A stretch of 39,654 bases of DNA from NCBI GenBank assembly GCA_021731095.1, contig JAKFYA010000251.1, positions 1-39,654 on the forward strand, read 5' to 3'. Both the position numbers and the translations under genes were made by a program. This stretch comes from Acidobacteriota bacterium (GTDB lineage: Bacteria; Acidobacteriota; Vicinamibacteria; Vicinamibacterales; UBA2999). The notes under the pieces are model-generated. The model saw only the letters and a program-made list of their open reading frames with translations. It did not search any database and was not told the DNA's origin. Positions 1-31,487 of this stretch are shown here, one piece after another (within the stretch, counting starts at the first letter, position 1; every line of letters starts with the position of its first letter).

Positions 1-1701
1 GGCCATCTGCACCTCATCGAAGTCACCGAAGGCCGCGCTCTCCGCATCCACCACATGCACGCCGCGGTCGCCGCTGCGGGGCGAAAACGTCTGACCCGAG
101 ATCCACTCGCGCACCTGGAAGGCCACCTCGGTCAGCGAGACGGGCGTGGCGTCGTGACCCGCGGCTGCCTCCTGCATGGCCGCGAGCCCCGCATGAATGG
201 CGGCACGCGCCCTGAGATGGCGGCCTCCCAGCGGGTCGTCCTGGTGTGGCACCCGGTCATGCGCAAGGAGGAACGCCAGCAGGGCGTCCAGATGCGTGGC
301 AGCCGGATGTGTGCCGGCCAGCGGCGCCAGCAGGCGCACCACCTGCAGCGCCACTACGCCGGCTCGCTCGGCCAGTCGCGCGCTCTCGTCAGCCGACCAT
401 GCTCCCACCAGGTCTGCCAGCGCCGACTCGCCTCCCAGGAAGCCCGCCTCGCTCAGCCTGCGGTCCAGCGCGTGGAGCGCGGCTGGCGAGCAGGTCGCGC
501 CGCAGGTAAGGTGCGGTGACCGGAGGACACCCAGCAGCGACGGACGTGCGCCCCCCGAGGCCGCGCAACCCAGTACCAGATCGAGCGTGGCGGCATAGGG
601 CTCGCCCGCGAGCGGCAGGGTGTCGAGCAGCTGACACGGCACGCCGGCCGAACGCAGCACCTCACGCGCGAGATACACATACGGCAGTGGCCGTCGCACC
701 AGCAGGGCGATCCGGTCCAATGGTACGGCCCCCGGTTCGCGCGCCTCTGCCTTGATGCGCCGGGCGAACGCCGCCACTTCTTCCTCCCGGTCTCGGGAGA
801 CCTGCACGAGGGGACCCGTACTGTCCGCCGCTCGCGCAGGCGACGTCGCCACGGTCAGCAGGACCGGAGCACCGGACCCCTCGCCGGCCGGGACACGCAT
901 CTGACTGCAGCCTGGCAGCAGGTCCTGCAGCCGTGCCTCGAGGCCATGGATCAGCGCCGCGTCTGTCGCCACCAGGTCGAGGCGTGCGAGGCCCGGCACA
1001 CGAGCCAGCAGATCGAAGTCGCATGGCCAGAGTCCGTAGGGACTCGACGCGCGGTCTCCTGTGGCAATCACCACATGGCGCCAGGGGCGCTCGACCACGG
1101 TCGCCAGCGTCCGGGCCCTGAGGTGATGCTCGTCCAGTGCGCCGGTTGCCCGACTGGCCTCGTCGAACAGCCGGAAGGCCGCGACCAGGAAGCGCGTCTG
1201 CACGGCCAGACGGGCGGCGCCGCGATCGATATCCACATTCGGTTCGAGCGCGTCAAGCGTCAGCCGCTCGAACGCCTCGATGCTGCGCATGTGGCGCTGG
1301 AGTTCGTCGTAGAACGTCAGAATCTCTGAAATGAGACCGGGCCTGAGCCTGAACGGTGGCACGAGTCCCTCCGCGACCACACGACGGCAGGCCGCGCCCA
1401 TCATGGCCGCACGCTCGACGGCCGACAGCAACCGCGGTAGTCCTGGCATGCGGGTGCCGAGCCGGGGGCCCAGATCTTCGCGGGTCACCAGGTCCGGCAG
1501 CACGCAGGCTGACGCGGACGCCTCAAGGCCCCGCGCCTCGATGGCACGGCGCAGATGGAGCGCAGCCGCGCGGGTCGGCACCACGATCAGCCGGTCGCGG
1601 GCGTCCAGTGGCGACCCTTCGCTGGCCAGCCCCACCAGTGTCTGACGGAAATGACGCAGGCCGGTGACGCGGAGCAGTGTTGTGCGACGTGGTGTCGTCA
1701 C
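1..1701 (-). CDS. AddB-like PD-(D/E)XK nuclease / double-strand-break repair subunit B homologue; N-terminal 567 codons only, 3' end leaves the window
   Basis: Absent from the ORF track because no stop lies in the window. My own reverse-strand translation from GTG (complement of 1699-1701) stays open to position 1. It reads TTPRRTTLLRVTGLRHFRQTLVGLASEGSPLDARDRLIVVPTRAAALHLRRAIE...GVHVVDAESAAFGDFDEVQMA, which resembles the N-terminal half of AddB-type proteins. The GTG overlaps the upstream stop (GTGA). Confidence 0.55.
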   Translation of the reverse strand, partial: MTTPRRTTLLRVTGLRHFRQTLVGLASEGSPLDARDRLIVVPTRAAALHLRRAIEARGLEASASACVLPDLVTREDLGPRLGTRMPGLPRLLSAVERAAMMGAACRRVVAEGLVPPFRLRPGLISEILTFYDELQRHMRSIEAFERLTLDALEPNVDIDRGAARLAVQTRFLVAAFRLFDEASRATGALDEHHLRARTLATVVERPWRHVVIATGDRASSPYGLWPCDFDLLARVPGLARLDLVATDAALIHGLEARLQDLLPGCSQMRVPAGEGSGAPVLLTVATSPARAADSTGPLVQVSRDREEEVAAFARRIKAEAREPGAVPLDRIALLVRRPLPYVYLAREVLRSAGVPCQLLDTLPLAGEPYAATLDLVLGCAASGGARPSLLGVLRSPHLTCGATCSPAALHALDRRLSEAGFLGGESALADLVGAWSADESARLAERAGVVALQVVRLLAPLAGTHPAATHLDALLAFLLAHDRVPHQDDPLGGRHLRARAAIHAGLAAMQEAAAGHDATPVSLTEVAFQVREWISGQTFSPRSGDRGVHVVDAESAAFGDFDEVQMA

Positions 1702-3071
1702 GGAAGGACCGGCGGTGCCACAAAGCTGGCCAGGCCGCGTTGCGCATCTGCCAGCATCATCAGCGCGGCGGCCGCGGCCGACGAGGCGTCCCTGGCCAGC
1801 GGCACACTGGCGGAGGACACCGCGGAACGGCGTGAGGCCAGCGCCTGTTCCGCAAAGCGCCAGGCTCCGACCAGCCGCGCATGCACGTCAGCCAGGTCGC
1901 CTGGTGTCACCTGACGCTGCAACACCTCGGCACCACCGGCCAGACGGTTTGCCAGCTTGTCCAGTGTGGCCGGCTCGGGGCCGTCAAGCCGCCGGATCGA
2001 CTCCAGCGCCGGCTGCGCACGCACCAGTTGCAGCAGGGGCGGACCCACCGCACGCTGATAGGCACGGTAGAGGCCGCGGCGCATGGTCCACTGATCTCGT
2101 CGCAGGCGGAGGCGCTGCGCCGCGTCGAGATGCTGAAGCAAGGCTGCCCGCACGGACTCGATCGTTTCTGGCCGACGGTGCCCCAGCCGCGCATCCACTT
2201 TCGACAGCCGGGCCAGCTGGGACTCGATGTCCCGCACGCTCGCCTCGGCCGCCGCCACGCGGGCCCGCGTCAGCGCCTTGCCTGCCGCGCGCGCGTAGTC
2301 CGCGTCGACCGCCTGCTCTGTCCGCACTTCTTTCAGGACCGACGACGACAGCCGCGACACCTCGCGCTTCGGCCAGGACGCGCGCGCCTCCTGCATCAGC
2401 ACCAGCGCGGCCTGAAGCAACGCCATCCGCTCATCGCGCCGCTCGACGAGATCAGCGGCTCGCAGAATGCCGGCGAGCATTTCCGGGGGACGCGGCATGC
2501 CGAGCACCGGTTCGAGCGGCACGTCCTGCACCTGCGCCGTCAATGCCAGGTCAAAGGCACCGACGCCAGCCTTCACACGCAGGTCGGCAATGACATCGTC
2601 GAGGAGCGCCAGCGTTTCATCAATCTCTTTGCGCCGGAACCCGTAGTGCGCGGCTGGCCAGGCCGCCAGCATGGCTCTCGCCTGCAGGGCTCTGGTCAGG
2701 GCCTGGCCCGGCTGGGTGCTCGCGGCAATGTCGTTGAGGACGCGTGCGGCCGCAGTGGTGACCGCATCGAAGTCAGCTTCGCCGCGCGTGGCCGCATATC
2801 GCTGATACCTGGCGGAGGCTGCGTAGCGGTCCGTCCGTGGCCAGTCGAATCGGGATTGAGGAATCGCCACCAGCTGCAGGCGCGGCTGGTCATCCGTTCC
2901 TCCTACGGGCATGGAGAAGACGACGAGGTCGGCCGAGCGGGCAAATTCGCCGAAGCTCACCAGCGTCGCACCGTCAGGCAGGAACAGGCGCAGGAGGGTG
3001 GCCTCGCTCGCGCAGGCGGGACGCGCAAACACCAGCAGCACGGCGAGCACACACAGTCTGGACACGCGCAT
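1698..3071 (-). CDS. hypothetical secreted Ala/Arg/Leu-rich helical protein (457 aa)
   Basis: Long ORF with an N-terminal signal-like sequence (MRVSRLCVLAVLLVFARPACASE). No motif I recognise. A 4-nt overlap couples it to the downstream AddB-like gene. Confidence 0.6.
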   Translation of the reverse strand: MRVSRLCVLAVLLVFARPACASEATLLRLFLPDGATLVSFGEFARSADLVVFSMPVGGTDDQPRLQLVAIPQSRFDWPRTDRYAASARYQRYAATRGEADFDAVTTAAARVLNDIAASTQPGQALTRALQARAMLAAWPAAHYGFRRKEIDETLALLDDVIADLRVKAGVGAFDLALTAQVQDVPLEPVLGMPRPPEMLAGILRAADLVERRDERMALLQAALVLMQEARASWPKREVSRLSSSVLKEVRTEQAVDADYARAAGKALTRARVAAAEASVRDIESQLARLSKVDARLGHRRPETIESVRAALLQHLDAAQRLRLRRDQWTMRRGLYRAYQRAVGPPLLQLVRAQPALESIRRLDGPEPATLDKLANRLAGGAEVLQRQVTPGDLADVHARLVGAWRFAEQALASRRSAVSSASVPLARDASSAAAAALMMLADAQRGLASFVAPPVLP

Positions 3072-3641: not shown

Positions 3642-3717
3642 GGGCCTGTAGCGCAGCTGGGAGCGCGCCTGAATGGCATTCAGGAGGTCACCGGTTCGAT
3701 CCCGGTCAGGTCCACCA
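3642..3717 (+). tRNA. tRNA-Ala (anticodon GGC), CCA encoded
   Basis: A 76-nt cloverleaf folded by hand:
- acceptor stem GGGCCTG/CAGGTCC with the Ala-identity G3:U70 pair;
- D arm GCGC-AGCTGGGA-GCGC;
- anticodon stem CCTGA/TCAGG with loop ATGGCAT;
- T arm ACCGG-TTCGATC-CCGGT;
- 3' ACCA. Confidence 0.95.
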
Positions 3718-7751: not shown

Positions 7752-7865
7752 ATGTCCATCTACCCCGACGACGAAGACGACGACCTCGACCAGGATCCAG
7801 AGGAGGACGACGATGACGACGAGGGTGACGACGATGGCGAGGTCCCCTGGGAAGTAAACGGTTGA
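7752..7865 (+). CDS. hyper-acidic micro-ORF (37 aa, MSIYPDDEDDDLDQDPEEDDDDDEGDDDGEVPWEVNG)
   Basis: Too short for the ORF track; translated by hand. GAGG lies 7 nt upstream. Same frame as the zinc-ribbon ORF, 9 nt after its TGA. Confidence 0.35.
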   Translation: MSIYPDDEDDDLDQDPEEDDDDDEGDDDGEVPWEVNG

Positions 7866-7891
7866 CTTATATCGGCTGAAATCCCTACACT
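7862..7891 (+). promoter_or_regulatory. candidate sigma70-type promoter for the cold-shock gene (TTGACT-18 nt-TACACT)
   Basis: TTGACT at 7862-7867 and TACACT at 7886-7891. GGAGGA RBS at 7905-7910, ATG at 7918. Confidence 0.45.
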
Positions 7892-8825: not shown

Positions 8826-9551
8826 CTATCGTCCCCAGCCCGTGAGCCGCTGGGTCCAGCTGCGCTTCTCGGTCAGAGCTCCGGTGGCGGGCTCGAACAT
8901 CAGCACGCGCGGCGCCACGGCGGCTGCAAACACCGGATCAGCCGTCACGATCAGTGACGCGAGGCCGCGACGTCCGACCAGGGCCCGCAGATCGGCGGCC
9001 AGGGCGGCGACGTCGGCCGTCTCCACCAGCGCGTTCGGATGTTCGGCCACAAGCAGCGTTGGTGCCTGCGCCAGCGCGCGCCCGAGCCGCACCCGCAGCG
9101 CGAGCCCAGGCGACAGCGCCCCCACCGACTGCGCAAGATGGCCAGGCTCCAGTCCAACGTCGGAGGCCAGCGCGCGCACGCGCTCGCGCACGTCCTGGGG
9201 AATGGCGTGCAGGTCGAGCGTGAAGGGCAGAGCAAGATTCTGTTCGACGCTCAGCATGTCGAGCAGCACCGCCCGCCCGCTGAGAATGCCGACGCGATCC
9301 AGCATCGCCAGCCAGGCATCGGCATCGGCAATGGTGGCCGTTGATTGTCCGAACAGTGCCACGTCCCCGCTGTCCGGTGCCACGGCGCCCGTCAGCAGGT
9401 CCACCAGCACCTGAGCCGACGGCTGGTCAAAGCCCACCAGCGCGACGGACTCACCGGCAGAGAGGGACAACTGCTCGATGCGCAACGGGCGGAGGCCGCC
9501 GTACTCTTTCCGGACCTGCCGCGCGGTCAACAGGGTCGGGCTATCCGCCAT
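8826..9551 (-). CDS. ABC-ATPase-fold protein with degenerate Walker A, signature, Walker B and H-loop
   Basis: The overall layout is that of an ABC nucleotide-binding domain (LLTARQVRKEYGG...LSLSAGESVALVG...). The motifs read GFDQPSAQ, LSPGLALR, LLVAEHPN and TADP. ATG 9551 preferred over TTG 9569. Confidence 0.65.
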   Translation of the reverse strand: MADSPTLLTARQVRKEYGGLRPLRIEQLSLSAGESVALVGFDQPSAQVLVDLLTGAVAPDSGDVALFGQSTATIADADAWLAMLDRVGILSGRAVLLDMLSVEQNLALPFTLDLHAIPQDVRERVRALASDVGLEPGHLAQSVGALSPGLALRVRLGRALAQAPTLLVAEHPNALVETADVAALAADLRALVGRRGLASLIVTADPVFAAAVAPRVLMFEPATGALTEKRSWTQRLTGWGR

Positions 9552-10374
9552 GCGTGCCCTGGCTGGCAACCACGAGTGCCTCCCAGGCCTCGGCCGGCAG
9601 CGTCACACTGCCGAGCGACGCCCGCTGACCCGGTTCGCCGTGGTAGTCCGAGCCTCCCGTGGCCAACAGCGCGCGCGACGACGCCAGGGCACCATAGCGC
9701 GCGCGGTCGGCGGGTCCGTGGTCGGCGTGGTACACCTCCAGCGCATCAAGCCCCTCGCCGCACAGGCGGTCCACCAACGCGTCATCCCGCAACTGCACCG
9801 GGTGGGCCAGCGACACCAGACCACGCGCAGCGTGTACCACCGCGGCCACCGCCCGCACCGTCGCGCCGGTGCGCGGCACAAACGCCGGCTGTCCTTCGCC
9901 AAGCCACCGGTCGAAGGCCTCCTGCATGGAACGGGCGTGCCCGGCCGCCATGAGTGCGCGGGCAATCAGGGGACGGCCCAGCGACTTCCCCGTGTCGGCT
10001 TTCGCCGCCGCCAGCATCTCGGTCGTGTCCACAGCACGGTTCAGCGCTGCGAGGCGGGCCGCAATCTCGCGGACGCGCTCCACGCGGGCCTCCCGCTGCC
10101 GCAGCAGGAACGCCTGCAGGGCCACGTCCTCGGGATTGAAGAAGTAGCCGAGCACGTGCACGTCACGCGACGCCTCGACGGCCGTGATCTCGATGCCGGG
10201 CACGGCGCGGATGCCGAGGGCCGCGCAGTGCGCCTGCACCTCTGCTGTGGCGCCGACCGTGTCATGGTCCGTGACGGCAATCGTCCGCAGGCCCGCTTCC
10301 GCGGTGCGGGCGACCAGCTCAGCGGGGGTGCACCGGCCGTCGGAGACGGTGGTGTGGAGGTGCAGGTCGATCAA
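9541..10374 (-). CDS. PHP-domain phosphoesterase (TrpH/YciV-like)
   Basis: MIDLHLHTTVSDG...IAVTDHD...GIE...GGSDYHG are PHP metal-ligand motifs. The TTG start overlaps the upstream stop (TTGA). Confidence 0.85.
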   Translation of the reverse strand: MIDLHLHTTVSDGRCTPAELVARTAEAGLRTIAVTDHDTVGATAEVQAHCAALGIRAVPGIEITAVEASRDVHVLGYFFNPEDVALQAFLLRQREARVERVREIAARLAALNRAVDTTEMLAAAKADTGKSLGRPLIARALMAAGHARSMQEAFDRWLGEGQPAFVPRTGATVRAVAAVVHAARGLVSLAHPVQLRDDALVDRLCGEGLDALEVYHADHGPADRARYGALASSRALLATGGSDYHGEPGQRASLGSVTLPAEAWEALVVASQGTHGG

Positions 10375-11366
10375 CGCGAGGGTCCCGGCTCGGACGGGGC
10401 CTGACCTGAGGCTACCGGACGACTCTGGCGCGCAACGAGGGCGCGATACTCGCGGATCAGCAGGTCGAGATGCTCCCGCTCTTCGGCCGCAAACTCGAGG
10501 AAGATCTGCTTGCCCTCAGAGTCCTCGAACCGCTCGCCATACTTGCGGAAAAAACGATGCGAACCCCGCTCGCAGCGGATACCGATGAGCAGCGCGTGCT
10601 GGTCGTCGACACCGCGGACCAGCTCTTCCGCACCTCGCGCAAACAGGCCGTGGGCCGCGCCCTTGAAGAAGAGGAATGTCGGGCGCGAATCAAGAAGGGG
10701 ATCGCGCGCGAGCAGTTCTTCATAGCGCCGCTCCAGCGTGGTGAGGTGATGCGCTTCCTCTTCGGCGAGCTTGCGGAACACCTCGCGACCGCGTTCGTCG
10801 CGGGTGATGGTGGCCGCGCGTGAGTAGAACTCCAGCCCACTGCGTTCGGTGGCGATGGCAATGCGCAGGGCGTCCCTGGCAAAGACCAGCTCCGTGTGTT
10901 CGTGGTCGTGGTCGTGCTCGTGTCCGTCTGTGGGCGGCCGCTCGCCGGCCTGGCACTGCTCGCACGTGCCATAAATCTGCACGACGCTCTGCGCCATTGC
11001 AAAACCACGCGCCTGTGCCACCTCCTCGACGATCGACTCGATGTCGGAGCTGAGGAACTCGAAGGATCGGCTGCAGCTCTTGCAGATGAGATGGTAGTGA
11101 CGAGGGTGGCGATAGGACGGCTCATACCGAGACCGCCCTTCGCCGAAATCAACTTTCCTGGCAATGCCCGCGTCCACCATCCACTGCAGCGTGCGGTAGA
11201 CGGTGGCGCGGCTGATGCGCCCATCTGCGCTCCGGATCCGATCAAACAGATCGTCGGCGCTCAGATGGCCCTCCTGACGGAGGAAGACGTTCAGAATCTG
11301 CTCGCGCTTGCTGGAGCGTTTGCCCCCAGCCGGCTTCAGATCGTGAACGTCCGGAAAGGTAGACAA
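10371..11366 (-). CDS. Fur-family transcriptional repressor fused to a C-terminal rubrerythrin/ferritin-like di-iron domain (331 aa)
   Basis: - Fur part, aa 1-140: winged-helix RISRATVYRTLQWMVDAG plus HLICKSC...CEQC structural Zn-site motifs.
- Linker, aa 147-157: DGHEHDHDHEH.
- C-terminal part: four-helix-bundle motifs E(RSG), EEEAHH, E(RGS) and EEREH. Confidence 0.8.
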   Translation of the reverse strand: MSTFPDVHDLKPAGGKRSSKREQILNVFLRQEGHLSADDLFDRIRSADGRISRATVYRTLQWMVDAGIARKVDFGEGRSRYEPSYRHPRHYHLICKSCSRSFEFLSSDIESIVEEVAQARGFAMAQSVVQIYGTCEQCQAGERPPTDGHEHDHDHEHTELVFARDALRIAIATERSGLEFYSRAATITRDERGREVFRKLAEEEAHHLTTLERRYEELLARDPLLDSRPTFLFFKGAAHGLFARGAEELVRGVDDQHALLIGIRCERGSHRFFRKYGERFEDSEGKQIFLEFAAEEREHLDLLIREYRALVARQSRPVASGQAPSEPGPSR

Positions 11367-11369
11367 GGC

Positions 11370-11723
11370 CTAGTGGCTGTGACCGCCGCCGCCTTCGCCG
11401 TCCACGCTGAACGAGCTGCCGCAGCCGCAGGTGGACGTGGCGTTCGGGTTCTTGATGGTGAAGCCACCACCGGTGACCGTGTCGACGAAGTCGACCTCGG
11501 CGCCCTTCAGGTAGCTGACGCTGACCGGGTCCACGAACAGCTTCACGCCATTCGACTCGAACACCTGGTCGCCTTCGCCGCCCGCATCTTCGATCATCAG
11601 ACCGTACTGGAATCCCGAGCATCCGCCGCCCTGGACGAACACGCGCAGACCCGCCTCGGACTTGCCTTCTTCGGTGAGCAGCTCGGTGATTTTCGACGCC
11701 GCCGTCGTGGACACGTTGATCAT
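11370..11723 (-). CDS. erpA: A-type iron-sulfur cluster carrier / insertion protein
   Basis: [10 protein letters not shown] and [15 protein letters not shown] motifs closely match E. coli ErpA as I remember it. 117 aa. Confidence 0.9.
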
Positions 11724-11781
11724 CGTCTTGAATCTCCCTGGAACCTACAGGTGAAAGTATACCGTCCGCCACCGTGGACCG

Positions 11782-11817
11782 GCAAGATACCCGACATTAT
11801 AAGTCGTAGTAAGTTGC
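11782..11817. promoter_or_regulatory. imperfect palindrome centred on ATTATAA (core CGAC-ATTATAA-GTCG; outer arms GCAAGATAC / GTAAGTTGC) in the erpA-fdhE divergent region
   Basis: Read directly. The bottom strand reads TATAAT at 11796-11801, 73 nt upstream of the erpA ATG. Confidence 0.35.
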
Positions 11818-11859
11818 CGCCGTATCTCGTTGTGTGACATAAACTTGTGGCTTCCCTGC

Positions 11860-12807
11860 ATGCACACTCTGGCTTCAGCCATCCCTTCCGACCACGATTT
11901 GCGCGCGCAGCTCGTCCGGCGCCTCGCCCAGTTGGACGCCGAACGTCCAGACCTGGCGTCAGCGCTGGCGCTCCAGGGGCGCCTGCTCACCCGCGAGCTG
12001 GACCTGCTCGACATGCTCCTCAGCGGTGGGGTACCGGGTCTGGCCCTGCCGGCTCGCTACCTGGCCACCAAGCTCAAGGGCGGCATTCCGGTGTTGCATG
12101 GAGAGCCCGTGCCCTTGCCGGGCGGTCTGCTCACGCTGGCCCTCCGTGACTTCTGTGGTCAGCTGGGCTCCGGCCCAACTGCCGAAGCCACGCGCGCCAT
12201 CGAACTCGCCATTGACGAGGCCAGGCTGGATGCCGGCGCGGTACTCTCGGCCTGCTTCGGTCGCGATCAGCATCGCGTGCGCCACATGGCGGCGCAGGCT
12301 GGCGCGTCGGCCGATATCCTGTGGCTTGTGGCCGAGCTGGCGCTCGCGCCGTTCGCACATCTGCTGCAATTGCAGCTCTTCGCCAGCGCCGATCAGGACC
12401 ACGGCGAGACATGCCCGCTGCGCGAGGCCGTGACCCACTGGGACCGCGGGTATTGTCCCGCGTGCGGCACCTGGCCTGCCTTGACGGAGGTCGGCCCCGA
12501 AGGTCACACACTACGTTGCGCCTTCTGCGCACGAGGATGGAGCCTGCAGGACTATCGCTGCGTCTACTGCGGCGACGACGGCGAGCAGTTCCTCACGGCG
12601 GCACTCGACCCCGAGGTGCCTGGACGACGGCTGCAGCTGTGCGGCGCGTGCGGCGGCTACATGAAGGTGCTGGAGCGTGACCACGCGTGCGGCTTCCCGC
12701 TGGTCGCGCTGGAAGACATGGTGTCGCTGGACCTCGATATGGCCGCGCTGGAACGCCACTACGTGCGACCTCCGCTCCCGCAGATCCGTCGGACCCACAC
12801 GACCTAG
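11860..12807 (+). CDS. fdhE: FdhE-like protein (formate dehydrogenase accessory family, four CxxC pairs)
   Basis: CPACG...CAFCA...CVYCG...CGACGGYMKV arrangement typical of FdhE. ATG 11860 preferred over the upstream alternative start at 11830. Confidence 0.7.
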   Translation: MHTLASAIPSDHDLRAQLVRRLAQLDAERPDLASALALQGRLLTRELDLLDMLLSGGVPGLALPARYLATKLKGGIPVLHGEPVPLPGGLLTLALRDFCGQLGSGPTAEATRAIELAIDEARLDAGAVLSACFGRDQHRVRHMAAQAGASADILWLVAELALAPFAHLLQLQLFASADQDHGETCPLREAVTHWDRGYCPACGTWPALTEVGPEGHTLRCAFCARGWSLQDYRCVYCGDDGEQFLTAALDPEVPGRRLQLCGACGGYMKVLERDHACGFPLVALEDMVSLDLDMAALERHYVRPPLPQIRRTHTT

Positions 12808-13844: not shown

Positions 13845-15365
13845 CTACTTCTGCGTCGCCAGCGCGGCCAGTTCGGTCGCGGATGCCGCTTCAATGTCCT
13901 TGTGCAGACTGTTGCCGTGCGCATCCATCGTGACGATGGCCGGGAACTCGTCCACCTGCAGATGCCACATCGCCTCGGGCGACCCGAACTCGAGCAGTGA
14001 CACGCCGTCCACCTTCGTGATGGTGCGCGCGTAGTACTGCGCCGCGCCACCGATGGCGTTCAGGTACACCGCGCCATGTTCCTTCAGCGCCGCCAGAGTC
14101 TTCGGACCCATGCCGCCTTTGCCCATCACCGCGCGAACCCCGTACCTGCCGATGATGTCCGCCTGGTAGGGTTCCTCACGAATGCTGGTGGTGGGTCCGG
14201 CCGCCGTCACCCGGTAGCCGTCGCCATCCTTCGCAATCACCGGACCGCAGTGGTAGATCACATGGCCCCGCAGATCCACGGGCGGCTCGTGCTTCATCAG
14301 GTGCGCGTGCACGGCATCGCGGCCCGTGAACATGCGGCCGGAAATCAGCACCACGTCGCCCACCTTCAGCGACCGGATCTGCTCCTCGCTGATCGGCGCT
14401 TCGAGCTTCACCTCACGCCCGGTGCGCGGGATGCCGGCCTGGCTGGCCATCGCGGCCACCGGCGAGGACGGGTCACAGTAGAGCCACTGCGTGATTGCGC
14501 CGCTCGGGTCGAGCACCACGCCGAGCCGACGGAACGCCCAGCAGTCGTATGCGACAGAGACGAAGAAGCTGGCCGGAAGCCGGTTCTTCGCCGTGACCTT
14601 GCATCCGATCAGCGACACGGCGCCGCCAAACCCCATGGTGCCGATGCCGAGCTTGTTCACCGTGCCCATGACACCGGCCTCAAGTTCGGCCAGCACCGGG
14701 TCCGGGTTCACATCGTCGAGTGTCCGGAACAGCTGGTCCTTGGCGTGTGCGTACCCTGACGTGCGGTCGCCCCCGATGCAGACGCCGATGGCTCCGGGCG
14801 CGCAGCCCTTGCCCTGGGCGTTCCAGATGGCGTGCAGGATGCACTTGCGCACACCTTCGAGCGTGCGGTCGGCCCGGCCCATGTTGGGCAGCTCGACCGG
14901 CAGGGAGTACTGCGCGTTCATGTTCTCGCAGCCGCCGCCCTTGAGGATGAGCTTCACCTCGACTTCGTCGCGCTCCCACTGCTCGAAGTGGATGATGGGC
15001 GTGCCGGGCCCGAGGTTGTCGCCGGTGTTCTCCCCGGTAATCGAGTCCACCGAGTTCGAGCGGAGCTTGCCGCGCCGGGTGGCCTCGGCCACCGCGTCAC
15101 GAATCTCCTGCTTCATCACGATCTGGTTGGCACCGACCGGCGTCTTCACCTCGAAGGTCGGCATGCCGGTGTCCTGGCAGATGGCGCCCTCACAGTCCGC
15201 CGCCTGGTCGATGTTGGTGGCAATGATGGCCAGGGCCTGACCCGACTGGCTCGACGGCGACTCCTGCGCAATGGCGGTCGACATCGCCGCGCGCACGTCG
15301 GTCGGCAGATCGGTGGAGGTCCGGACGATCAGGGCAAGCACGCTCTCGAAGAAGGGTGAAGGCAT
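13845..15365 (-). CDS. class I (Fe-S dependent) fumarate hydratase, fused alpha/beta type (506 aa)
   Basis: N-terminal Fumerase-like and C-terminal Fumerase_C-like halves (...CQDTGMP..., ...GKGGMG...). ATG 15365 (MPSPFFE) preferred. Confidence 0.85.
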   Translation of the reverse strand: MPSPFFESVLALIVRTSTDLPTDVRAAMSTAIAQESPSSQSGQALAIIATNIDQAADCEGAICQDTGMPTFEVKTPVGANQIVMKQEIRDAVAEATRRGKLRSNSVDSITGENTGDNLGPGTPIIHFEQWERDEVEVKLILKGGGCENMNAQYSLPVELPNMGRADRTLEGVRKCILHAIWNAQGKGCAPGAIGVCIGGDRTSGYAHAKDQLFRTLDDVNPDPVLAELEAGVMGTVNKLGIGTMGFGGAVSLIGCKVTAKNRLPASFFVSVAYDCWAFRRLGVVLDPSGAITQWLYCDPSSPVAAMASQAGIPRTGREVKLEAPISEEQIRSLKVGDVVLISGRMFTGRDAVHAHLMKHEPPVDLRGHVIYHCGPVIAKDGDGYRVTAAGPTTSIREEPYQADIIGRYGVRAVMGKGGMGPKTLAALKEHGAVYLNAIGGAAQYYARTITKVDGVSLLEFGSPEAMWHLQVDEFPAIVTMDAHGNSLHKDIEAASATELAALATQK

Positions 15366-15366
15366 A

Positions 15367-15388
15367 GCGCCCAGTATAATTTGGGCGC
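15367..15388. promoter_or_regulatory. inverted repeat GCGCCCA-GTATAATT-TGGGCGC enclosing a TATAAT hexamer, between the divergent fumarase and methyltransferase genes
   Basis: Read directly. The whole intergenic spacer is only 32 bp (15366-15397). Confidence 0.4.
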
Positions 15389-15397
15389 CGGTTCCGT

Positions 15398-16135
15398 ATG
15401 CCGTTCCAAGCCGCACACGTCCCCTTTCGCCGCCGGCTGACCCGGCGCGGTCTCCCGCTCGCCTTGGCGCTGGCGGCGCTGGCGGTGGCCACCACCCTGG
15501 CGGCCCAGCCGGCCCAGCGGGCCGACACGTCTCCCCACGGACGCCTCTTTCCGCCGCAGGATCTCGGGCTGCTCGAGGCCCCGGACCGGGAAATGTGGCA
15601 GAAGCCGGCCCAGATCATGGACGCCCTGCGCATCGCACCCGGGTCTGTGGTGGCCGACATCGGGGCCGGCGCCGGCTGGTTCACGATCCGTCTGGCGCGT
15701 CGCGTAGGCCCAGGCGGACTGGTGTACGCCCAGGACGTGCAGCGGCAGATGCTCGAAGCCATCCGGCGACGCGTGGCCAAGGAAGGCCTGCAGAATGTCG
15801 AGCCTCGCCTCGGCCGGGCGAACGACCCGGGCCTGCCCACCGGTCGACTGGATGCCGTTCTAGTCGTGGATGTCTACCCGGAAATCGAAGACCGCATCAC
15901 CTTTCTTCGCAATCTGGCCAGGGCGCTCAGGCCAGGCGGCCGCATCGGCGTGGTCAACTTCAGGCCGGGACAGAGCGGACCTGGCCCCAGCCCAGGCGAG
16001 GGCGTCCGCGTCGCCGCCGACGTGGTGGAAGCCGATGCGAAGGCCGCGGGTCTGCAGGTGGCGGCCCGGGGCACCTTTCTTCCCTATCAGTACCTGCTCG
16101 TGCTCGAGCGACCGTCGGCACCGGTGACACGATGA
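15398..16135 (+). CDS. class I SAM-dependent methyltransferase with N-terminal Arg-rich signal/anchor sequence
   Basis: Motif I is VADIGAGAGWF. The N-terminus is RRRLTRRGLPLALALAALAVATTLAAQ. Confidence 0.8.
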   Translation: MPFQAAHVPFRRRLTRRGLPLALALAALAVATTLAAQPAQRADTSPHGRLFPPQDLGLLEAPDREMWQKPAQIMDALRIAPGSVVADIGAGAGWFTIRLARRVGPGGLVYAQDVQRQMLEAIRRRVAKEGLQNVEPRLGRANDPGLPTGRLDAVLVVDVYPEIEDRITFLRNLARALRPGGRIGVVNFRPGQSGPGPSPGEGVRVAADVVEADAKAAGLQVAARGTFLPYQYLLVLERPSAPVTR

Positions 16136-27028: not shown

Positions 27029-28823
27029 CCACCGGGCTCCCAGCCGGAACGCCGGCCGGAAGGGTCGCCCGGGCTGGCACCGGGCGGCGCTCGCCGATCT
27101 GCTGGCGCCACATCGCGTAGTAGAGACCCTTCTGCTCGAGCAGGGCCGCATGGCTGCCCGACTCAATGACCCTGCCCTGCTCCAGGACGAAGATCCGGTC
27201 GGCGTGCATGATGGTCGACAGTCGGTGCGCGATGAGGATGGTCATCACGTCCTGACTGGCGGCCACTTCGCGGATGGTGGCGCCAATCTCTTCCTCCGTC
27301 AGCGAATCGAGCGACGACGTCGCCTCGTCGAAGACCAGCAGGTGCGGGTGCCGCAGCAGCGCCCGCGCAATCGAGAGGCGCTGTTTCTCGCCTCCCGACA
27401 CCTTGACGCCGCCTTCGCCAATCACCGTGTCTAGTCCCTGACTCGCCCGCGCGAGCAGCGTGTCACAGGCCGCCTTGCGGAGCACCGCCAGGCAGTCCTC
27501 GTCGGTGGCAGTGGGATTCACGAACAGCAGGTTCTCCCGGATGCTCCCGGCAAACAGCTGGGTGTCCTGGGTGACGAAGCCGATGCGCTCGCGCAACTGG
27601 TTCAGGTCCACGGTCGCCGCGTCGTGGCCGTTGTAGAGAATGCGCCCGGCCTGGGCCGGATAGAGCCCCACCAGCAATTTGACCAGCGTCGTCTTGCCTG
27701 CCCCTGACGGGCCGACAAACGCCACCGTATCTCCCTGACGCAGGTCGAACGAGATGTCGGTCAGCGCCGGAGACGATGCCGTCTGATGGGTGAAGCCGAC
27801 ACCCTGGAACGCCAGCGTCCGGAGTTCCGGCACCGCCGCGGGGTTGTCCGGCCGCGGCTCGACCGGCATGGCCAGAATGTCCTCGAAGTTCTTCAGCGAC
27901 ACTTCGGCTTCGCGGTAGATGTTGATGATGTTGCCCAGCTCCTGCAGCGGGCCGAAGATGAAGAACGAGTAGATGAACAGCGAGAAGAACTGGCCGACGG
28001 TGATCTCCCGGGCAAAGATCAGATAGAGCATCAGGAACAGGATGCTCGTGCGCAGGAAATTGACAGTGGTGCCCTGAATGAAGCTGAGGCTGCGGATGTA
28101 GCGCACCTTCTTCAGCTCAAGCTGGAGAATCCGGTCCGTGGTGGTATTGAGCCGGGCAATCTCCTGCGCCGCCAGGCCCAGGCTCTTCACCAGCTCGATG
28201 TTCCGGAGCGACTCGGTGGTGGACCCGGCCAGCGCGGTCGTCTCGGCCACGATGACCTTCTGGATCGTCTTGATCTTCCGGCTCAGCACGGAGCTCAGCA
28301 CGCCCAGCACCGGCACGGTGAGGAAGTACACCGGCGCGATGGCCCAGTGCACCGTGAAGGCATAGCTCACGACGAAGATGATGCCCACCAGCGAGGTGAA
28401 GAGGATGCTGATGGACGCGGCAATCAGCTTCTCGACATCAGCCCGCACCTTCTGGAGCTTGCCCAGGGTTTCTCCGCTCCGCTGGTCCTCGAACACCGCA
28501 TAGGGCAGCTCGAGCGAGTGGCTGATGCCATCCGAATAGATCCGGGCCCCGATCCGCTGCGTGATGACGTTGATGAAGTAGTCCTGGAAGTTCTTGGCCA
28601 CGCGTGACACGAAGGCCACGCCGACCGCCGCCGCCAGCAGCAGGCTGACGCCCCGGAAGAAGTCACGGGTCGAATACTGGTCGAAGCGGGTGGCGTACTC
28701 GTCGATGACGTGCCTGAAGATCAGCGGGTCAAGCAGCGAGAAGACCTGGTTGATGGCCGCCAGGACCAGCGCCAGCGTCACCAGGCGCCAGTAGTCCTTC
28801 AGATAGGCGAGCAGCAGTCTCAT
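27018..28823 (-). CDS. ABC exporter half-transporter (fused TMD-NBD, MsbA-like topology), 601 aa
   Basis: Six-helix TMD followed by GPSGAGKTT, VSGGEKQRLSIARAL, LLVFDEATSSLD and IAHRLST. ATG 28823 (MRLLLAYLKDYW); the track ORF extension to 29654 is rejected. Confidence 0.9.
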   Translation of the reverse strand: MRLLLAYLKDYWRLVTLALVLAAINQVFSLLDPLIFRHVIDEYATRFDQYSTRDFFRGVSLLLAAAVGVAFVSRVAKNFQDYFINVITQRIGARIYSDGISHSLELPYAVFEDQRSGETLGKLQKVRADVEKLIAASISILFTSLVGIIFVVSYAFTVHWAIAPVYFLTVPVLGVLSSVLSRKIKTIQKVIVAETTALAGSTTESLRNIELVKSLGLAAQEIARLNTTTDRILQLELKKVRYIRSLSFIQGTTVNFLRTSILFLMLYLIFAREITVGQFFSLFIYSFFIFGPLQELGNIINIYREAEVSLKNFEDILAMPVEPRPDNPAAVPELRTLAFQGVGFTHQTASSPALTDISFDLRQGDTVAFVGPSGAGKTTLVKLLVGLYPAQAGRILYNGHDAATVDLNQLRERIGFVTQDTQLFAGSIRENLLFVNPTATDEDCLAVLRKAACDTLLARASQGLDTVIGEGGVKVSGGEKQRLSIARALLRHPHLLVFDEATSSLDSLTEEEIGATIREVAASQDVMTILIAHRLSTIMHADRIFVLEQGRVIESGSHAALLEQKGLYYAMWRQQIGERRPVPARATLPAGVPAGSPVVSR

Positions 28824-28850
28824 GGTGATAGCATTAAACCATTGAAAAAC

Positions 28851-31487
28851 ATGGTCTTGTCTGACCGTGACGCAATGACCTCGCCCACCGGTTCCCGCAC
28901 CAACGGCAAATTCCTCGACGTGGATGGCCGGCGCTTCCTGGTCAAGGGCGTCACCTACGGCACGTTCGCCCCGGACGCGACCGGAGGCCAGTTTCCAACG
29001 CTGGCACAGATCGACCGCGACTTCGGCCTGATGGCCGCTGCAGGTGTGAACACGGTCCGCGTGTACACCGTCCCCGCTCCCGAGTTGCTGGATACGGCCG
29101 CCAGCCACGGCCTGCGCGTCATGATTGGGGTGCCCTGGGCCCAGCACATCGCCTTTCTGGGCGACCCGGCCCTGACCCGGAGCATCCGCGAACAGGCCGC
29201 CACCACCGTCCGGACTCTGGCCAGTCATCCCGCCACGCTGATGTTTGCGGTCGGCAACGAGATTCCGGCCTCTGTGGTGCGCTGGCACGGCCAGGAGCAG
29301 ATCGAGCGTTTCCTCGGCGAGCTGTATGACGCCTGCAAGCAGGCCGCGCCGGACAGCGTCCTCACCTACGTCAACTTTCCGCCCACCGAATATCTCGACC
29401 TCGAGTGCTTCGACGTCTGCAGTTTCAACGTCTATCTGCACCGGGAAGCCGACCTGCGTGCCTATCTGGCCCGGCTGCAGCACCGGGCCGGCTACAAGCC
29501 GCTGCTGCTGGCCGAGGCTGGCGCCGACAGCATTCGCGAGGGTCTGGACGGCCAGGCGCGCATCACGGCCAATCACATCCGCGCGGCGTTCGAGGAAGGC
29601 GCCTGCGGCGCCGTTGCCTTTGCGTGGACCGACGAGTGGTGGCGCGGTGGACACACTGTTGAGGACTGGTCCTTCGGACTCGTGGACGTGGCCCGTGAGC
29701 CGAAGCCGGCCCTGCCCGCCGTCTCCGCGGCATTTGCCCAGGCCCCCTTCTCAGACGAGGCGCGCGCGACCTGGCCCAGGACATCCGTCGTGGTCTGCGC
29801 GTACAACGCGGCGGACACCATCGACGACTGCCTGGCATCGCTCGAACAGCTCACCTACCCGAACGTCGAACTGATCGTGGTCAACGACGGCTCGAAGGAC
29901 GCCACGGGCACCATCGCGCGCCGGTATCCGACGGCCCACGTCATCGACATTCCGAATGGCGGCCTTAGTGCCGCGCGCAACGTGGGTCTGGCCCACGCGA
30001 CCGGCGAGTATGTCGCCTACACGGACGCCGATGTCCGGGTGGACCCTGACTGGCTGACCTATCTGGTGCAGCCCATGTTGTCAGGCGCGTTCGCCGGCTC
30101 GGGCGGTCCCAACGTGGTGCCACCGGAGGACGACTGGGTTGCCCAGTGCGTGGCCCGCTCACCGGGCGGCCCGACCCACGTCCTGCTCGACGACCGGGTG
30201 GCCGAGCACGTGCCTGGCTGCAACATGGCCTTCCGGCGCGACGCGCTCAATTCGATTGGCGGCTTCAACCCGGTCTACCTCCGCGCCGGCGACGACGTGG
30301 ACATCTGCTGGCGCCTCCAGGCGCGCGGTCTCCGCATCGGCTTTGCGCCGTCCGCTCTGGTCTGGCACCACCACCGCGCCACCGTCTCGGCCTACTGGCG
30401 TCAGCAGGTCGGATATGGCGAAGGCGAGACCTGGCTCGACGCACACCACCCCGAGAAGTTCGTTGGCGGCCAGGCAACGTGGCGCGGGCACATCTACAGC
30501 CCGCTGCCGTTTCTCCGCTCCTTCAAGGGCAGCCGCGTGAACACCGGCGTCTGGGGCACCGCCGCCTTCCCGTCCATCTACAGCGACGACGCCTACCGTC
30601 TGGAATATCTGCCGCACACGCCGCTCTGGCTGGGCGTCTCGCTGGCGCTCATCCTGGGTGGCGCGGTCGGTGTCGGTTTCCGCGAGGTCTTCGGCCTGTT
30701 GGCCCTGCTGGCCGGCCTTGGCGGCTGGGCCACCACCATCTCCCGGTGCATCACGTTCGCCCGGCGCTCGAACCTGCATGGCCTCCCGGACATCGGCACC
30801 CGGACGCACGCCCAGAGCCGGCTGATGTATCAGGGCCTGATCGCCTGGCTCCACATCATTCATCCGCTCGCGCGCCTGCGGGGCCGGCTGCGCGGCATGG
30901 CCGAGATGCCCCATGCCGTGTCCTCCGAGCACGTCATGCGACGGCCCTGGAAGATACCCTTCCCCTTGCCGGACGACCTCCGCCGCGCTGCCAACCTCAT
31001 TCTGTGCCGCACCGACGAGCGCGCCTTCTGGAGCGAGAACTGGGTGGCCCATGGCGAGGTACTGACCGAGCTCATCGGCGTGCTGCGTGCCGCACGGCCT
31101 GCACCGGTCATCGATGTGGACGAGGGCTGGCGGCAGGACCGCGACATCAGCCTGGCCGTCGGCCGCTGGGGCTGGCTGCACGTCAGCGCACTGGTCGAGG
31201 AGCACGCCGCTGGCAAGTGCCTCTTCCGCATCGCCACCCGCCTGCGCCTCAGCTTCATTGGCACCCTGCAGGCGCTGAGCGTCGCGCTGCTGCTCTCCTT
31301 CGGCAGCGTCGCGCTGATGTCGCTGCATCGCCCCTCCGGCCGCCTGCTCTCGGCGGTGGCCTTCGGCGTCCTGGCTATCCGCACGGCCTGGCAGACCATC
31401 CGCATCACGGCTGTCCTCGACCGCGCCATTCTGCGTACGGTTGGCGCGTCCGGCATGATGCCACTTCCCCCGACGCCGAAGGCCTGA
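28851..31487 (+). CDS. three-part fusion: clan GH-A (TIM-barrel) glycoside hydrolase-like domain, family-2 glycosyltransferase, and a C-terminal membrane region (878 aa)
   Basis: - GH part: VGNEIP (E137, nt 29259-29261) and LLAEAG (E222, nt 29514-29516).
- GT2 part: VVVCAYNAADTI, NDGSKD, YTDADV, GDDVDICWR and YWRQQVGYGEGE.
- Hydrophobic helices at roughly nt 30625-30745 and 31265-31400.
The start at 28851 is uncertain; 28875 is the alternative. Confidence 0.8.
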   Translation: MVLSDRDAMTSPTGSRTNGKFLDVDGRRFLVKGVTYGTFAPDATGGQFPTLAQIDRDFGLMAAAGVNTVRVYTVPAPELLDTAASHGLRVMIGVPWAQHIAFLGDPALTRSIREQAATTVRTLASHPATLMFAVGNEIPASVVRWHGQEQIERFLGELYDACKQAAPDSVLTYVNFPPTEYLDLECFDVCSFNVYLHREADLRAYLARLQHRAGYKPLLLAEAGADSIREGLDGQARITANHIRAAFEEGACGAVAFAWTDEWWRGGHTVEDWSFGLVDVAREPKPALPAVSAAFAQAPFSDEARATWPRTSVVVCAYNAADTIDDCLASLEQLTYPNVELIVVNDGSKDATGTIARRYPTAHVIDIPNGGLSAARNVGLAHATGEYVAYTDADVRVDPDWLTYLVQPMLSGAFAGSGGPNVVPPEDDWVAQCVARSPGGPTHVLLDDRVAEHVPGCNMAFRRDALNSIGGFNPVYLRAGDDVDICWRLQARGLRIGFAPSALVWHHHRATVSAYWRQQVGYGEGETWLDAHHPEKFVGGQATWRGHIYSPLPFLRSFKGSRVNTGVWGTAAFPSIYSDDAYRLEYLPHTPLWLGVSLALILGGAVGVGFREVFGLLALLAGLGGWATTISRCITFARRSNLHGLPDIGTRTHAQSRLMYQGLIAWLHIIHPLARLRGRLRGMAEMPHAVSSEHVMRRPWKIPFPLPDDLRRAANLILCRTDERAFWSENWVAHGEVLTELIGVLRAARPAPVIDVDEGWRQDRDISLAVGRWGWLHVSALVEEHAAGKCLFRIATRLRLSFIGTLQALSVALLLSFGSVALMSLHRPSGRLLSAVAFGVLAIRTAWQTIRITAVLDRAILRTVGASGMMPLPPTPKA

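Follow-up and report, generated by a model that had tools for sequence, protein, structure and literature searches.

This study describes a gene encoding a Fur-family regulator with an unusual second domain, found in a 39,654-nucleotide (nt) stretch of DNA from an Acidobacteriota bacterium of the order Vicinamibacterales (assembly GCA_021731095.1, contig JAKFYA010000251.1, positions 1 to 39,654 of the forward strand; hereafter, the window). In the encoded polypeptide a complete Fur module is covalently joined to a ferritin-like domain with six predicted di-iron ligands. The fusion, proposed in a preliminary description made from the DNA letters alone, proved genuine. The accessory di-iron domain, apparently uncharacterised, is conserved across the phylum, and we infer for it a role in sensing. 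The protein is best regarded as an Acidobacteriota-type Fur, an Fe(II)-dependent dimeric repressor to which the fused di-iron bundle would add a second input; this reading is given a probability of about 0.6. The gene and the parts of its product are listed below, with nucleotide positions in the window and residue numbers in amino acids (aa).

10371..11366, minus strand: Fur/ferritin-like fusion gene, 331 aa, TTG start, TGA stop at 10371-10373; matches to Pfam FUR and Rubrerythrin.
10971..11327, minus strand: Fur module, winged-helix DNA-binding and dimerisation domain, aa 14-132; Pfam FUR and matches to Fur, Zur and PerR structures in the PDB.
10953..11084, minus strand: structural Cys4 zinc site, C95-x-x-C98 and C135-x-x-C138, invariant in 23 of 23 aligned members.
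10884..10952, minus strand: inter-domain linker, aa 139-161, 23 aa, from a regular-expression census and alignment.
10896-10928, minus strand: His-rich stretch DGHEHDHDHEH, a lineage-specific insertion, from Tandem Repeats Finder and the linker census.
10419..10895, minus strand: ferritin-like (COG1633/'erythrin'-type) four-helix bundle, aa 158-316, from PF02915, an AlphaFold2 (AF2) model, profile matches to 2fzf and 1vjx, and Foldseek.
10374..10418, minus strand: variable C-terminal tail, aa 317-331, from alignment; no regular secondary structure in either model.

The two-domain assignment is far beyond chance. Pfam FUR matched aa 14-132 with an E value of 1.4e-27 and 96.7 bits (gathering cut-off 23.1), covering profile positions 3-121 of 121, and Pfam Rubrerythrin (PF02915) matched the C-terminal half at 4.3e-11 and 43.8 bits (cut-off 22.8); weaker Pfam matches to DUF2383 and COQ7 overlap the latter stretch. 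In the list of open reading frames (ORFs), no rival ORF with a family match lies over 10371..11366. The cysteine and histidine motifs HLICKSC (C95, C98), CEQC (C135, C138) and DGHEHDHDHEH (aa 147-157), as well as the di-iron motifs ERSG (E174), EEEAHH (E204, H207), ERGS (E266) and EEREH (E296, H299), all stand where they were first reported.

The fusion defines a large family. A search of a 5.8-billion-protein collection was followed by examination of the top 120 matches, all of which carry both PF01475 and PF02915, are about 312-344 aa long and share 73-93% identity with the query. A scan of GTDB species representatives revealed at least 153 loci encoding such proteins; in the best 80, on which all locus statistics given here are based, the fusion ORF is uninterrupted, with 68-78% protein identity. 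Closed chromosomes are among these 80, nearly all of which are labelled Vicinamibacterales, Vicinamibacteria or Acidobacteriota. In an exhaustive HMMER pass over a library clustered at 50% identity, 115 representatives reached E<=1e-30; frameshifted or truncated fragments of the fusion family account for many of these, and full-length true fusions at 30-41% identity were also present. A profile built from distant fusions then revealed a second large subfamily with 1128 matches at E<=1e-10; its top 120 likewise carry both Pfam domains and measure about 315-340 aa, and its named members are 'Acidobacteriota', 'Terriglobia' or 'Acidobacteria bacterium'. Hundreds of independent assemblies contain this architecture, uninterrupted and roughly 320 aa long. 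To judge from these searches, the family comprises at least two deep subfamilies at 30-40% identity, with all named members in Acidobacteriota, and the architecture appears to be old and restricted to this single phylum.

The preliminary description had allowed that the architecture might turn out to be common and already characterised. It is common within one phylum, and no characterisation was found: a literature search, with most subscription journals outside its coverage, returned no description or characterisation of a Fur plus ferritin-like architecture, and an earlier mention is possible. Nor is this architecture described in a paper on the evolution of rubrerythrins. Its phylum-wide commonness lowers the rarity of the Fur/ferritin-like combination, not its novelty.

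Several sequences at the margins of the family were set apart. Three presumed distant fusions, P0307, P0351 and P0364, were rejected as ferritin-like fusions and proved to be tandem duplications of Fur; with two Fur modules per polypeptide of about 290-336 aa, they represent a separate unusual Fur architecture. P0263 and P0339 are degenerate paralogues that have lost the 3His/2Glu site of Fur and most di-iron ligands although their winged helix and helical bundle remain; P0339 is missing the Cys4 dimerisation region as well, and both it and P0321 are degenerate or truncated sequences. A search for close stand-alone relatives of the C-terminal domain returned only truncated calls of the fusion family itself and was little informative.

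Such truncated calls also affect public annotation. Among the matches P0121-P0240, many gene calls have their start at Met63, inside the true protein, or further downstream; the resulting products of 155-275 aa are often named 'rubrerythrin'. A non-ATG true start, as in the window, likely lies behind the calls truncated at Met63, and the resulting 'rubrerythrin' entries are a systematic annotation error. Full-length records are named 'Fur family ferric uptake transcriptional regulator', 'transcriptional repressor' or 'hypothetical protein', so that the second domain goes unmentioned in the names of complete entries and the truncated ones are misnamed.

The N-terminal module matched at least 20 structures of Fur, Zur and PerR proteins in the PDB with E values from 1e-11 to 1e-18. 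All NCBIfam equivalog models for Fur, Zur and PerR scored below their cut-offs (the best, PRK09462 Fur, gave 82.5 bits against 146); because these scores are so far below the cut-offs, the module cannot be assigned to any of the three subfamilies. Its metal sites were mapped by alignment onto Escherichia coli Fur with the sites as defined by Deng et al. 2015 (PMC4506495), in the numbering of E. coli and Magnetospirillum gryphiswaldense. In that work, the site formed by H33, E81, H88, H90 and E101 joins the DNA-binding and dimerisation domains and is essential for DNA binding, and a secondary 'fine-tuner' site consists of H87, D89, E108 and H125 (PMC4506495). The five residues of the essential 3His/2Glu site correspond to H34, E82, H90, H92 and E103 in the fusion protein. 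Together with the Cys4 residues they are invariant within the window subfamily, and they are kept in 22 of 23 diverse sequences aligned across the subfamilies, distant ones included. The positions of the secondary site are occupied by R89, Y91 (Y or F in the subfamily), E110 and S127, and this site is lost in the window subfamily; the Terriglobia-like subfamily retains it as H/H/E/H. The secondary site is not universal in the Fur family. It was thus misleading to describe the regulatory His cluster as only partly kept, since the essential site is intact and only the secondary one has gone. As the sensing site of Fur is intact, the di-iron domain would be an added input and not a replacement sensor.

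The C-terminal domain is predicted to hold a complete set of di-metal ligands, E174, E204, H207, E266, E296 and H299, all invariant in the window subfamily. In the regular-expression census of 273 full-length family members, the ExxH...E...ExxH spacing was found in 264, and in the alignment this domain has very few invariant columns, the ligand positions being among them. One clade has Ser or Asn in place of E266. By this pattern of conservation, both metal-binding modules are intact and under strong constraint, that is, purifying selection.

The fold of the domain was modelled with AF2. A fold search with the full-length model was abandoned, being swamped by Fur matches and having a low-confidence Fur half, and the C-terminal domain was therefore modelled alone. 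Based on a 30-sequence alignment covering both subfamilies, this model reached a mean predicted local distance difference test (pLDDT) score of 91.9 and consists of four long helices with one short helix in the connection between helices B and C, where a P-x-F-L-x-F loop is conserved family-wide. Foldseek placed 2fzf of Pyrococcus furiosus first, followed by other ferritin-like proteins, with template modelling (TM) scores of 0.55-0.68 (target-normalised scores of 0.67-0.68 for 1vjx and 2oh3); Dps-like PA4880, bacterioferritins and Mn catalase are among the fold neighbours. A sequence profile of the domain gave the same picture against the PDB, matching 2fzf at 7.5e-11, Thermotoga maritima TM1526 (1vjx), described as a 'putative ferritin-like diiron-carboxylate protein', at 7e-10, and the Magnetospirillum COG1633 protein 2oh3 at 1.6e-06. 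Matches to EncB, symerythrin and bacterioferritins were much weaker, those to bacterioferritins having E values of 0.017 or worse save for one entry at 0.0016, and the cage-ferritin family PF00210 was matched weakly in only two of 14 C-terminal domains. In profile, fold and ligands, the domain corresponds to COG1633-type di-iron-carboxylate proteins. Among curated families the best match was PRK12775 of NCBIfam (1.5e-15), to the C-terminal ferritin domain of a reductase/GltD fusion, which hints at a redox-active centre, and NCBIfam MbfA matched at 1.6e-06.

The domain had been introduced as a di-iron rubrerythrin/ferritin-like module. The ferritin-like part of this description, with the full E/ExxH/E/ExxH set, holds; the rubrerythrin part does not in the strict sense. 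A rubredoxin-like Cys4 domain is absent, as Cys265 is the only cysteine after aa 138, no CxxC occurs and the chain ends about 15 aa past helix D. Helix C reads E266-R-G-S269-H270, with Ser269 at the place of the second Glu of the rubrerythrin ExxE motif. In rubrerythrin of Desulfovibrio vulgaris this extra helix-C Glu allows a redox-linked shift of iron. Because it has neither a rubredoxin domain nor a helix-C ExxE, the domain falls within the Pfam Rubrerythrin family without being a rubrerythrin peroxidase in the strict sense. The further suggestion that Fur had captured the PerR-regulated peroxidase finds no support, the nearest structures being uncharacterised COG1633-type proteins and a rubredoxin domain being absent.

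The two domains are joined by a linker of nearly constant length. In the census it was taken to begin directly behind the second CxxC and to include the first three residues of the conserved helix A start; so delimited, it measures 16-17 aa in 251 of the 273 family members, and the 23 aa in the window are the longest seen. Such constancy suggests that the bundle is held in a defined position relative to the dimerisation domain. The His-rich stretch, present at aa 147-157 (nt 10896-10928) as first described, arises from a tandem array of the hexanucleotide GTGGTC (4.5 copies; plus strand, 10896-10922), which specifies the His/Asp-rich part of the linker. Apart from the window, only P0001, at 93% identity, has five or more histidines in the linker; HEHEH is seen in a few near relatives, and in most members the count is zero or one. 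The stretch is, by all appearances, a recent slippage-type repeat expansion with no family-wide role, and because it is confined to the window and P0001 it cannot belong to a mechanism conserved in the family; the idea that it is a conserved metal relay was rejected. At the other end of the bundle, the tail (aa 317-331) is Arg/Lys-rich in most relatives, is predicted to be disordered and has lower pLDDT in the model of the C-terminal domain.

Taken as an Fe(II)-dependent repressor with a second input, the protein would dimerise through its Fur domain and, like other Fur proteins, would be a DNA-bound repressor when the 3His/2Glu site holds Fe(II). Two C-terminal bundles beside the dimerisation domain would then supply the additional signal, which could be iron load, oxidation (diferrous versus diferric after reaction with O2 or H2O2) or both, and which would tune DNA affinity or the oligomeric state. 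Within Vicinamibacteria, whose subfamily has lost the 'fine-tuner' site, the added domain may take the place of that site. In a narrower form of this proposal, the di-iron centre would be a sensory cofactor whose occupancy or redox state, set by iron, O2 or H2O2, allosterically gates DNA binding by the Fur dimer; such gating by the di-iron site is put forward tentatively and is rather doubtful in this specific form.

A number of observations weigh against the proposed mechanism. No Fur box with at least 13 of 19 consensus matches occurs in the window, and no conserved operator was seen at the promoter of erpA, the gene directly upstream of the fusion gene, where in 31 aligned promoters only the -35 TTG and the -10 TATAAT are conserved. 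The full-length AF2 model has a poor Fur half (pLDDT 66.7) and gives no inter-domain geometry. Metal binding by the C-terminal domain does not appear to be obligatory in every member, because of the clade with Ser or Asn at E266 and the ligand-poor P0263 and P0339, and the identity of the metal (Fe, Mn or Zn) is not readable from sequence. Metal binding, DNA binding and the coupling of the domains are all deduced from residues and models. Finally, ferritin-like bundles often act merely as dimerisation modules.

Three other explanations of the architecture are less likely than an Fe(II)-dependent Fur with a second input. In the first, the protein would be a regulator with a built-in protective enzyme, a ferroxidase or peroxidase of the rubrerythrin or Dps type that sends no signal to the DNA-binding domain; its task would be to detoxify Fe(II) and H2O2 where the repressor sits on DNA, or else to keep a small store of iron. 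The E/ExxH/E/ExxH site is identical to ferroxidase/peroxidase centres, and the Pfam Rubrerythrin match, the fold neighbours (Dps-like PA4880, bacterioferritins and Mn catalase) and the ferritin domain of the reductase fusion as best curated match point the same way. However, a rubredoxin or other electron-entry module is missing, the seventh Glu of rubrerythrin is replaced by Ser269, and a regulator present at a few copies per cell makes bulk detoxification or storage implausible. Attachment to a Fur dimer would probably also hinder the assembly of the bundle into a storage cage, and the fixed linker length suggests a defined geometry, not a loose tether. An enzymatic role of this kind is considered unlikely.

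Also improbable is a purely architectural bundle, which would provide extra oligomerisation, for example dimers of dimers with cooperative operator binding, and whose metal site would be structural only. Ferritin-like domains do dimerise, as in MbfA, the linker is short and fixed in length, and the ligand-less paralogues P0263 and P0339 still retain the bundle. Against this stands the conservation of the six ligands across subfamilies at 30-40% identity, in positions that belong to the small number of fully conserved columns of the domain, which is hard to explain without selection on metal binding.

It is very unlikely that the protein is a PerR-type sensor, with a Fur module that senses H2O2 by metal-catalysed oxidation of His and a C-terminal domain captured from its own regulon. 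PerR regulons often include rubrerythrins, and PerR models do match the N-terminal module (NCBIfam 3.6e-17; PDB 2fe3 5.2e-17), but Fur models score higher and every equivalog score is far below its cut-off. Glu103 occupies the position of the fifth regulatory ligand; Fur likewise has Glu there, whereas Asp is typical of PerR (D104 in Bacillus subtilis). The artefact foreseen in the preliminary description, a frameshift or assembly error wrongly joining two adjacent genes, is a priori possible given the many frameshifted family fragments in metagenome assemblies, but its probability is negligible in view of the continuous ORF in 80 loci of different projects including closed chromosomes, the hundreds of protein clusters, the two domains present throughout both top-120 sets, the conserved linker length and the equal G+C content at third codon positions (GC3) of the two halves of the gene (0.76 and 0.75).

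The fusion gene lies within an operon, of which the following features were identified.

11370..11723, minus strand: erpA, the first operon gene, for an A-type carrier of Fe-S clusters; matches the NCBIfam ErpA equivalog at 140 bits (cut-off 117).
9541..10374, minus strand: PHP-domain phosphoesterase; Pfam PHP and NCBIfam matches; TTGA 4-nt overlap with the fusion gene.
11756..11785, minus strand: sigma-70-like promoter TTGCCG-18-TATACT upstream of erpA; one site in the scan against 0.1 expected.

The stop codon of erpA lies 3 nt ahead of the TTG start of the fusion gene, and this gap, like the 4-nt overlap with the PHP gene, is as originally noted. The fusion gene is co-transcribed with erpA and the PHP phosphoesterase gene and is probably translationally coupled to both. 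The PHP protein resembles nucleoside bisphosphate phosphatase and RNase RNM, with scores below the equivalog cut-offs. The operon may reach four genes by inclusion of an ATP-binding cassette (ABC)-type ATPase; as listed, the ORF of the latter (8826-9569, minus strand) overlaps the PHP ORF (9541-10374, minus strand) by 29 nt, and its PF00005 match is weak. Among the 80 loci, which are of the Vicinamibacteria type, erpA is directly upstream in 80, the PHP gene downstream in 74 and the ABC-type ATPase gene next in 64. Protein identity across them is higher for the fusion protein (68-78%) than for the PHP (41-63%) and ABC (40-54%) proteins, and is 71-92% for ErpA.

In the loci of the distant subfamily that were examined, the gene stands alone among unrelated housekeeping genes, once beside a divergent ferredoxin gene and never with erpA. 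The neighbourhood is thus present as first described and is not tied to the fusion itself: the erpA-fur-PHP order is a Vicinamibacteria-specific synteny that does not explain the fusion, and the linkage to erpA may be relevant to Fe-S biology in Vicinamibacteria.

The site at 11756-11785 is likely the operon promoter, as predicted from its sequence; a TTG-N19-21-TATAAT layout is found at erpA in 31 of 78 related loci. Other sequence elements were noted around it. An imperfect palindrome, CGAC-ATTATAA-GTCG (CGAC-N7-GTCG), at 11792-11806 is not conserved in relatives, and the closest relatives (L002-L012) share a non-palindromic word, GAGATAC / AAGATAG, some 50 nt upstream of the erpA -10 element. 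A scan for the 19-bp Fur-box consensus with a threshold of 12 matches gave a single palindromic site, at 27231, which was rejected as being within the range of shuffled sequence. Upstream of three genes of the distant subfamily, no obvious shared motif was found. Divergently from erpA, at 11830-12807 on the plus strand, lies a Cys-rich ORF of 325 aa with weak FdhE C-terminal and rubredoxin-like matches (TIGR01562 at 1.3e-10, below the cut-off), which is kept at this position in 27 of 80 related loci.

Elsewhere in the window, a class I (Fe-S dependent) fumarate hydratase is encoded at 13845-15416 (minus strand), 2.5 kb from the erpA operon. No iron-uptake genes were found in the window, and the remaining genes are housekeeping ones, including those for RF1, PrmC, phosphoenolpyruvate carboxylase, argininosuccinate synthase, an M48 peptidase and a GT2 glycosyltransferase. 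A 457-aa ORF at 1698-3071 (minus strand) has a GC3 of 0.79 and no Pfam match at E<=1e-5. Rfam and tRNA scans gave nothing near the fusion locus; the only hit was tRNA-Ala(GGC) at 3642-3717. Two AT-rich islands, at 7852-7882 and 28816-28865, interrupt a window of otherwise 68% GC, and inverted CATGGT/ACCATT-like words are present in the second of them (AGTCTCATGGTGATAGCATTAAACCATTGAAAAACATGGTC...).

Fur is the standard model of bacterial iron regulation and normally consists of a single module of about 140-150 residues. The family described here departs from this paradigm, in that an additional and strongly conserved di-iron domain is attached to the Fur protein of a major soil phylum that has been poorly cultivated. 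If this domain senses iron load or oxidants, it would represent a new kind of one-component metal/redox sensor and would give a role to COG1633-type ferritin-like proteins, whose structures have been solved and whose function is unassigned. Should the di-iron site indeed gate DNA binding, this would be the first case of a transcription factor that senses through a ferritin-like di-iron site, and an abundant soil phylum would integrate iron and oxidant sensing in one polypeptide instead of in separate Fur and PerR proteins. In Vicinamibacteria, the shared operon with erpA would link the regulator to the supply of Fe-S clusters. The architecture could also offer a compact module for engineered redox-responsive repressors.

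Comparison with known systems places the fusion between several of them. With Fur proteins (E. coli 8j6w; Magnetospirillum gryphiswaldense 4raz and 4rb1) it shares the winged helix, the dimerisation domain, the Cys4 site and the 3His/2Glu site; it differs in the extra C-terminal di-iron domain of about 170 aa, in the loss of the secondary site in the window subfamily, in the lack of a classical Fur box nearby and in scoring below the NCBIfam Fur cut-offs. PerR is likewise a Fur paralogue with a Cys4 site, a five-ligand regulatory site and a functional link to rubrerythrins, but it is a single-module protein that controls rubrerythrin genes in trans and has Asp where Glu103 is found here. The C-terminal domain has the four-helix bundle and the E/ExxH/E/ExxH ligands of the COG1633-type proteins 2fzf, 1vjx and 2oh3, which are stand-alone proteins of unassigned function at about 20% identity, and the P-x-F-L-x-F loop is the fusion's own. 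Rubrerythrins, such as the peroxidases of D. vulgaris and P. furiosus, share PF02915 and the six core di-iron ligands with this domain, whereas the rubredoxin-like Cys4 site and the helix-C ExxE are absent from it and structures of the symerythrin/rubrerythrin type score weakly. A peroxidase function should not be assumed for it.

Sensors in which a di-iron four-helix bundle responds to iron or O2 and is fused to a signalling output are known among hemerythrin-domain proteins, namely FBXL5, DcrH and Bhr-DGC. These belong to an unrelated fold family and have other outputs, so that they serve as an analogy only; to our knowledge, none of the three is a Fur-family DNA-binding protein. MbfA combines an erythrin-like domain with an iron-homeostasis effector, a VIT1-type iron exporter, and its ferritin-like domain dimerises; according to the literature, it is limited to alpha-proteobacteria. 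Its output is a membrane transporter and its ferritin-like domain is N-terminal, whereas the fusion protein is a predicted transcription factor. At the sequence level, MbfA appears to be the closest precedent for the fusion of a di-iron bundle to Fur in Acidobacteriota.

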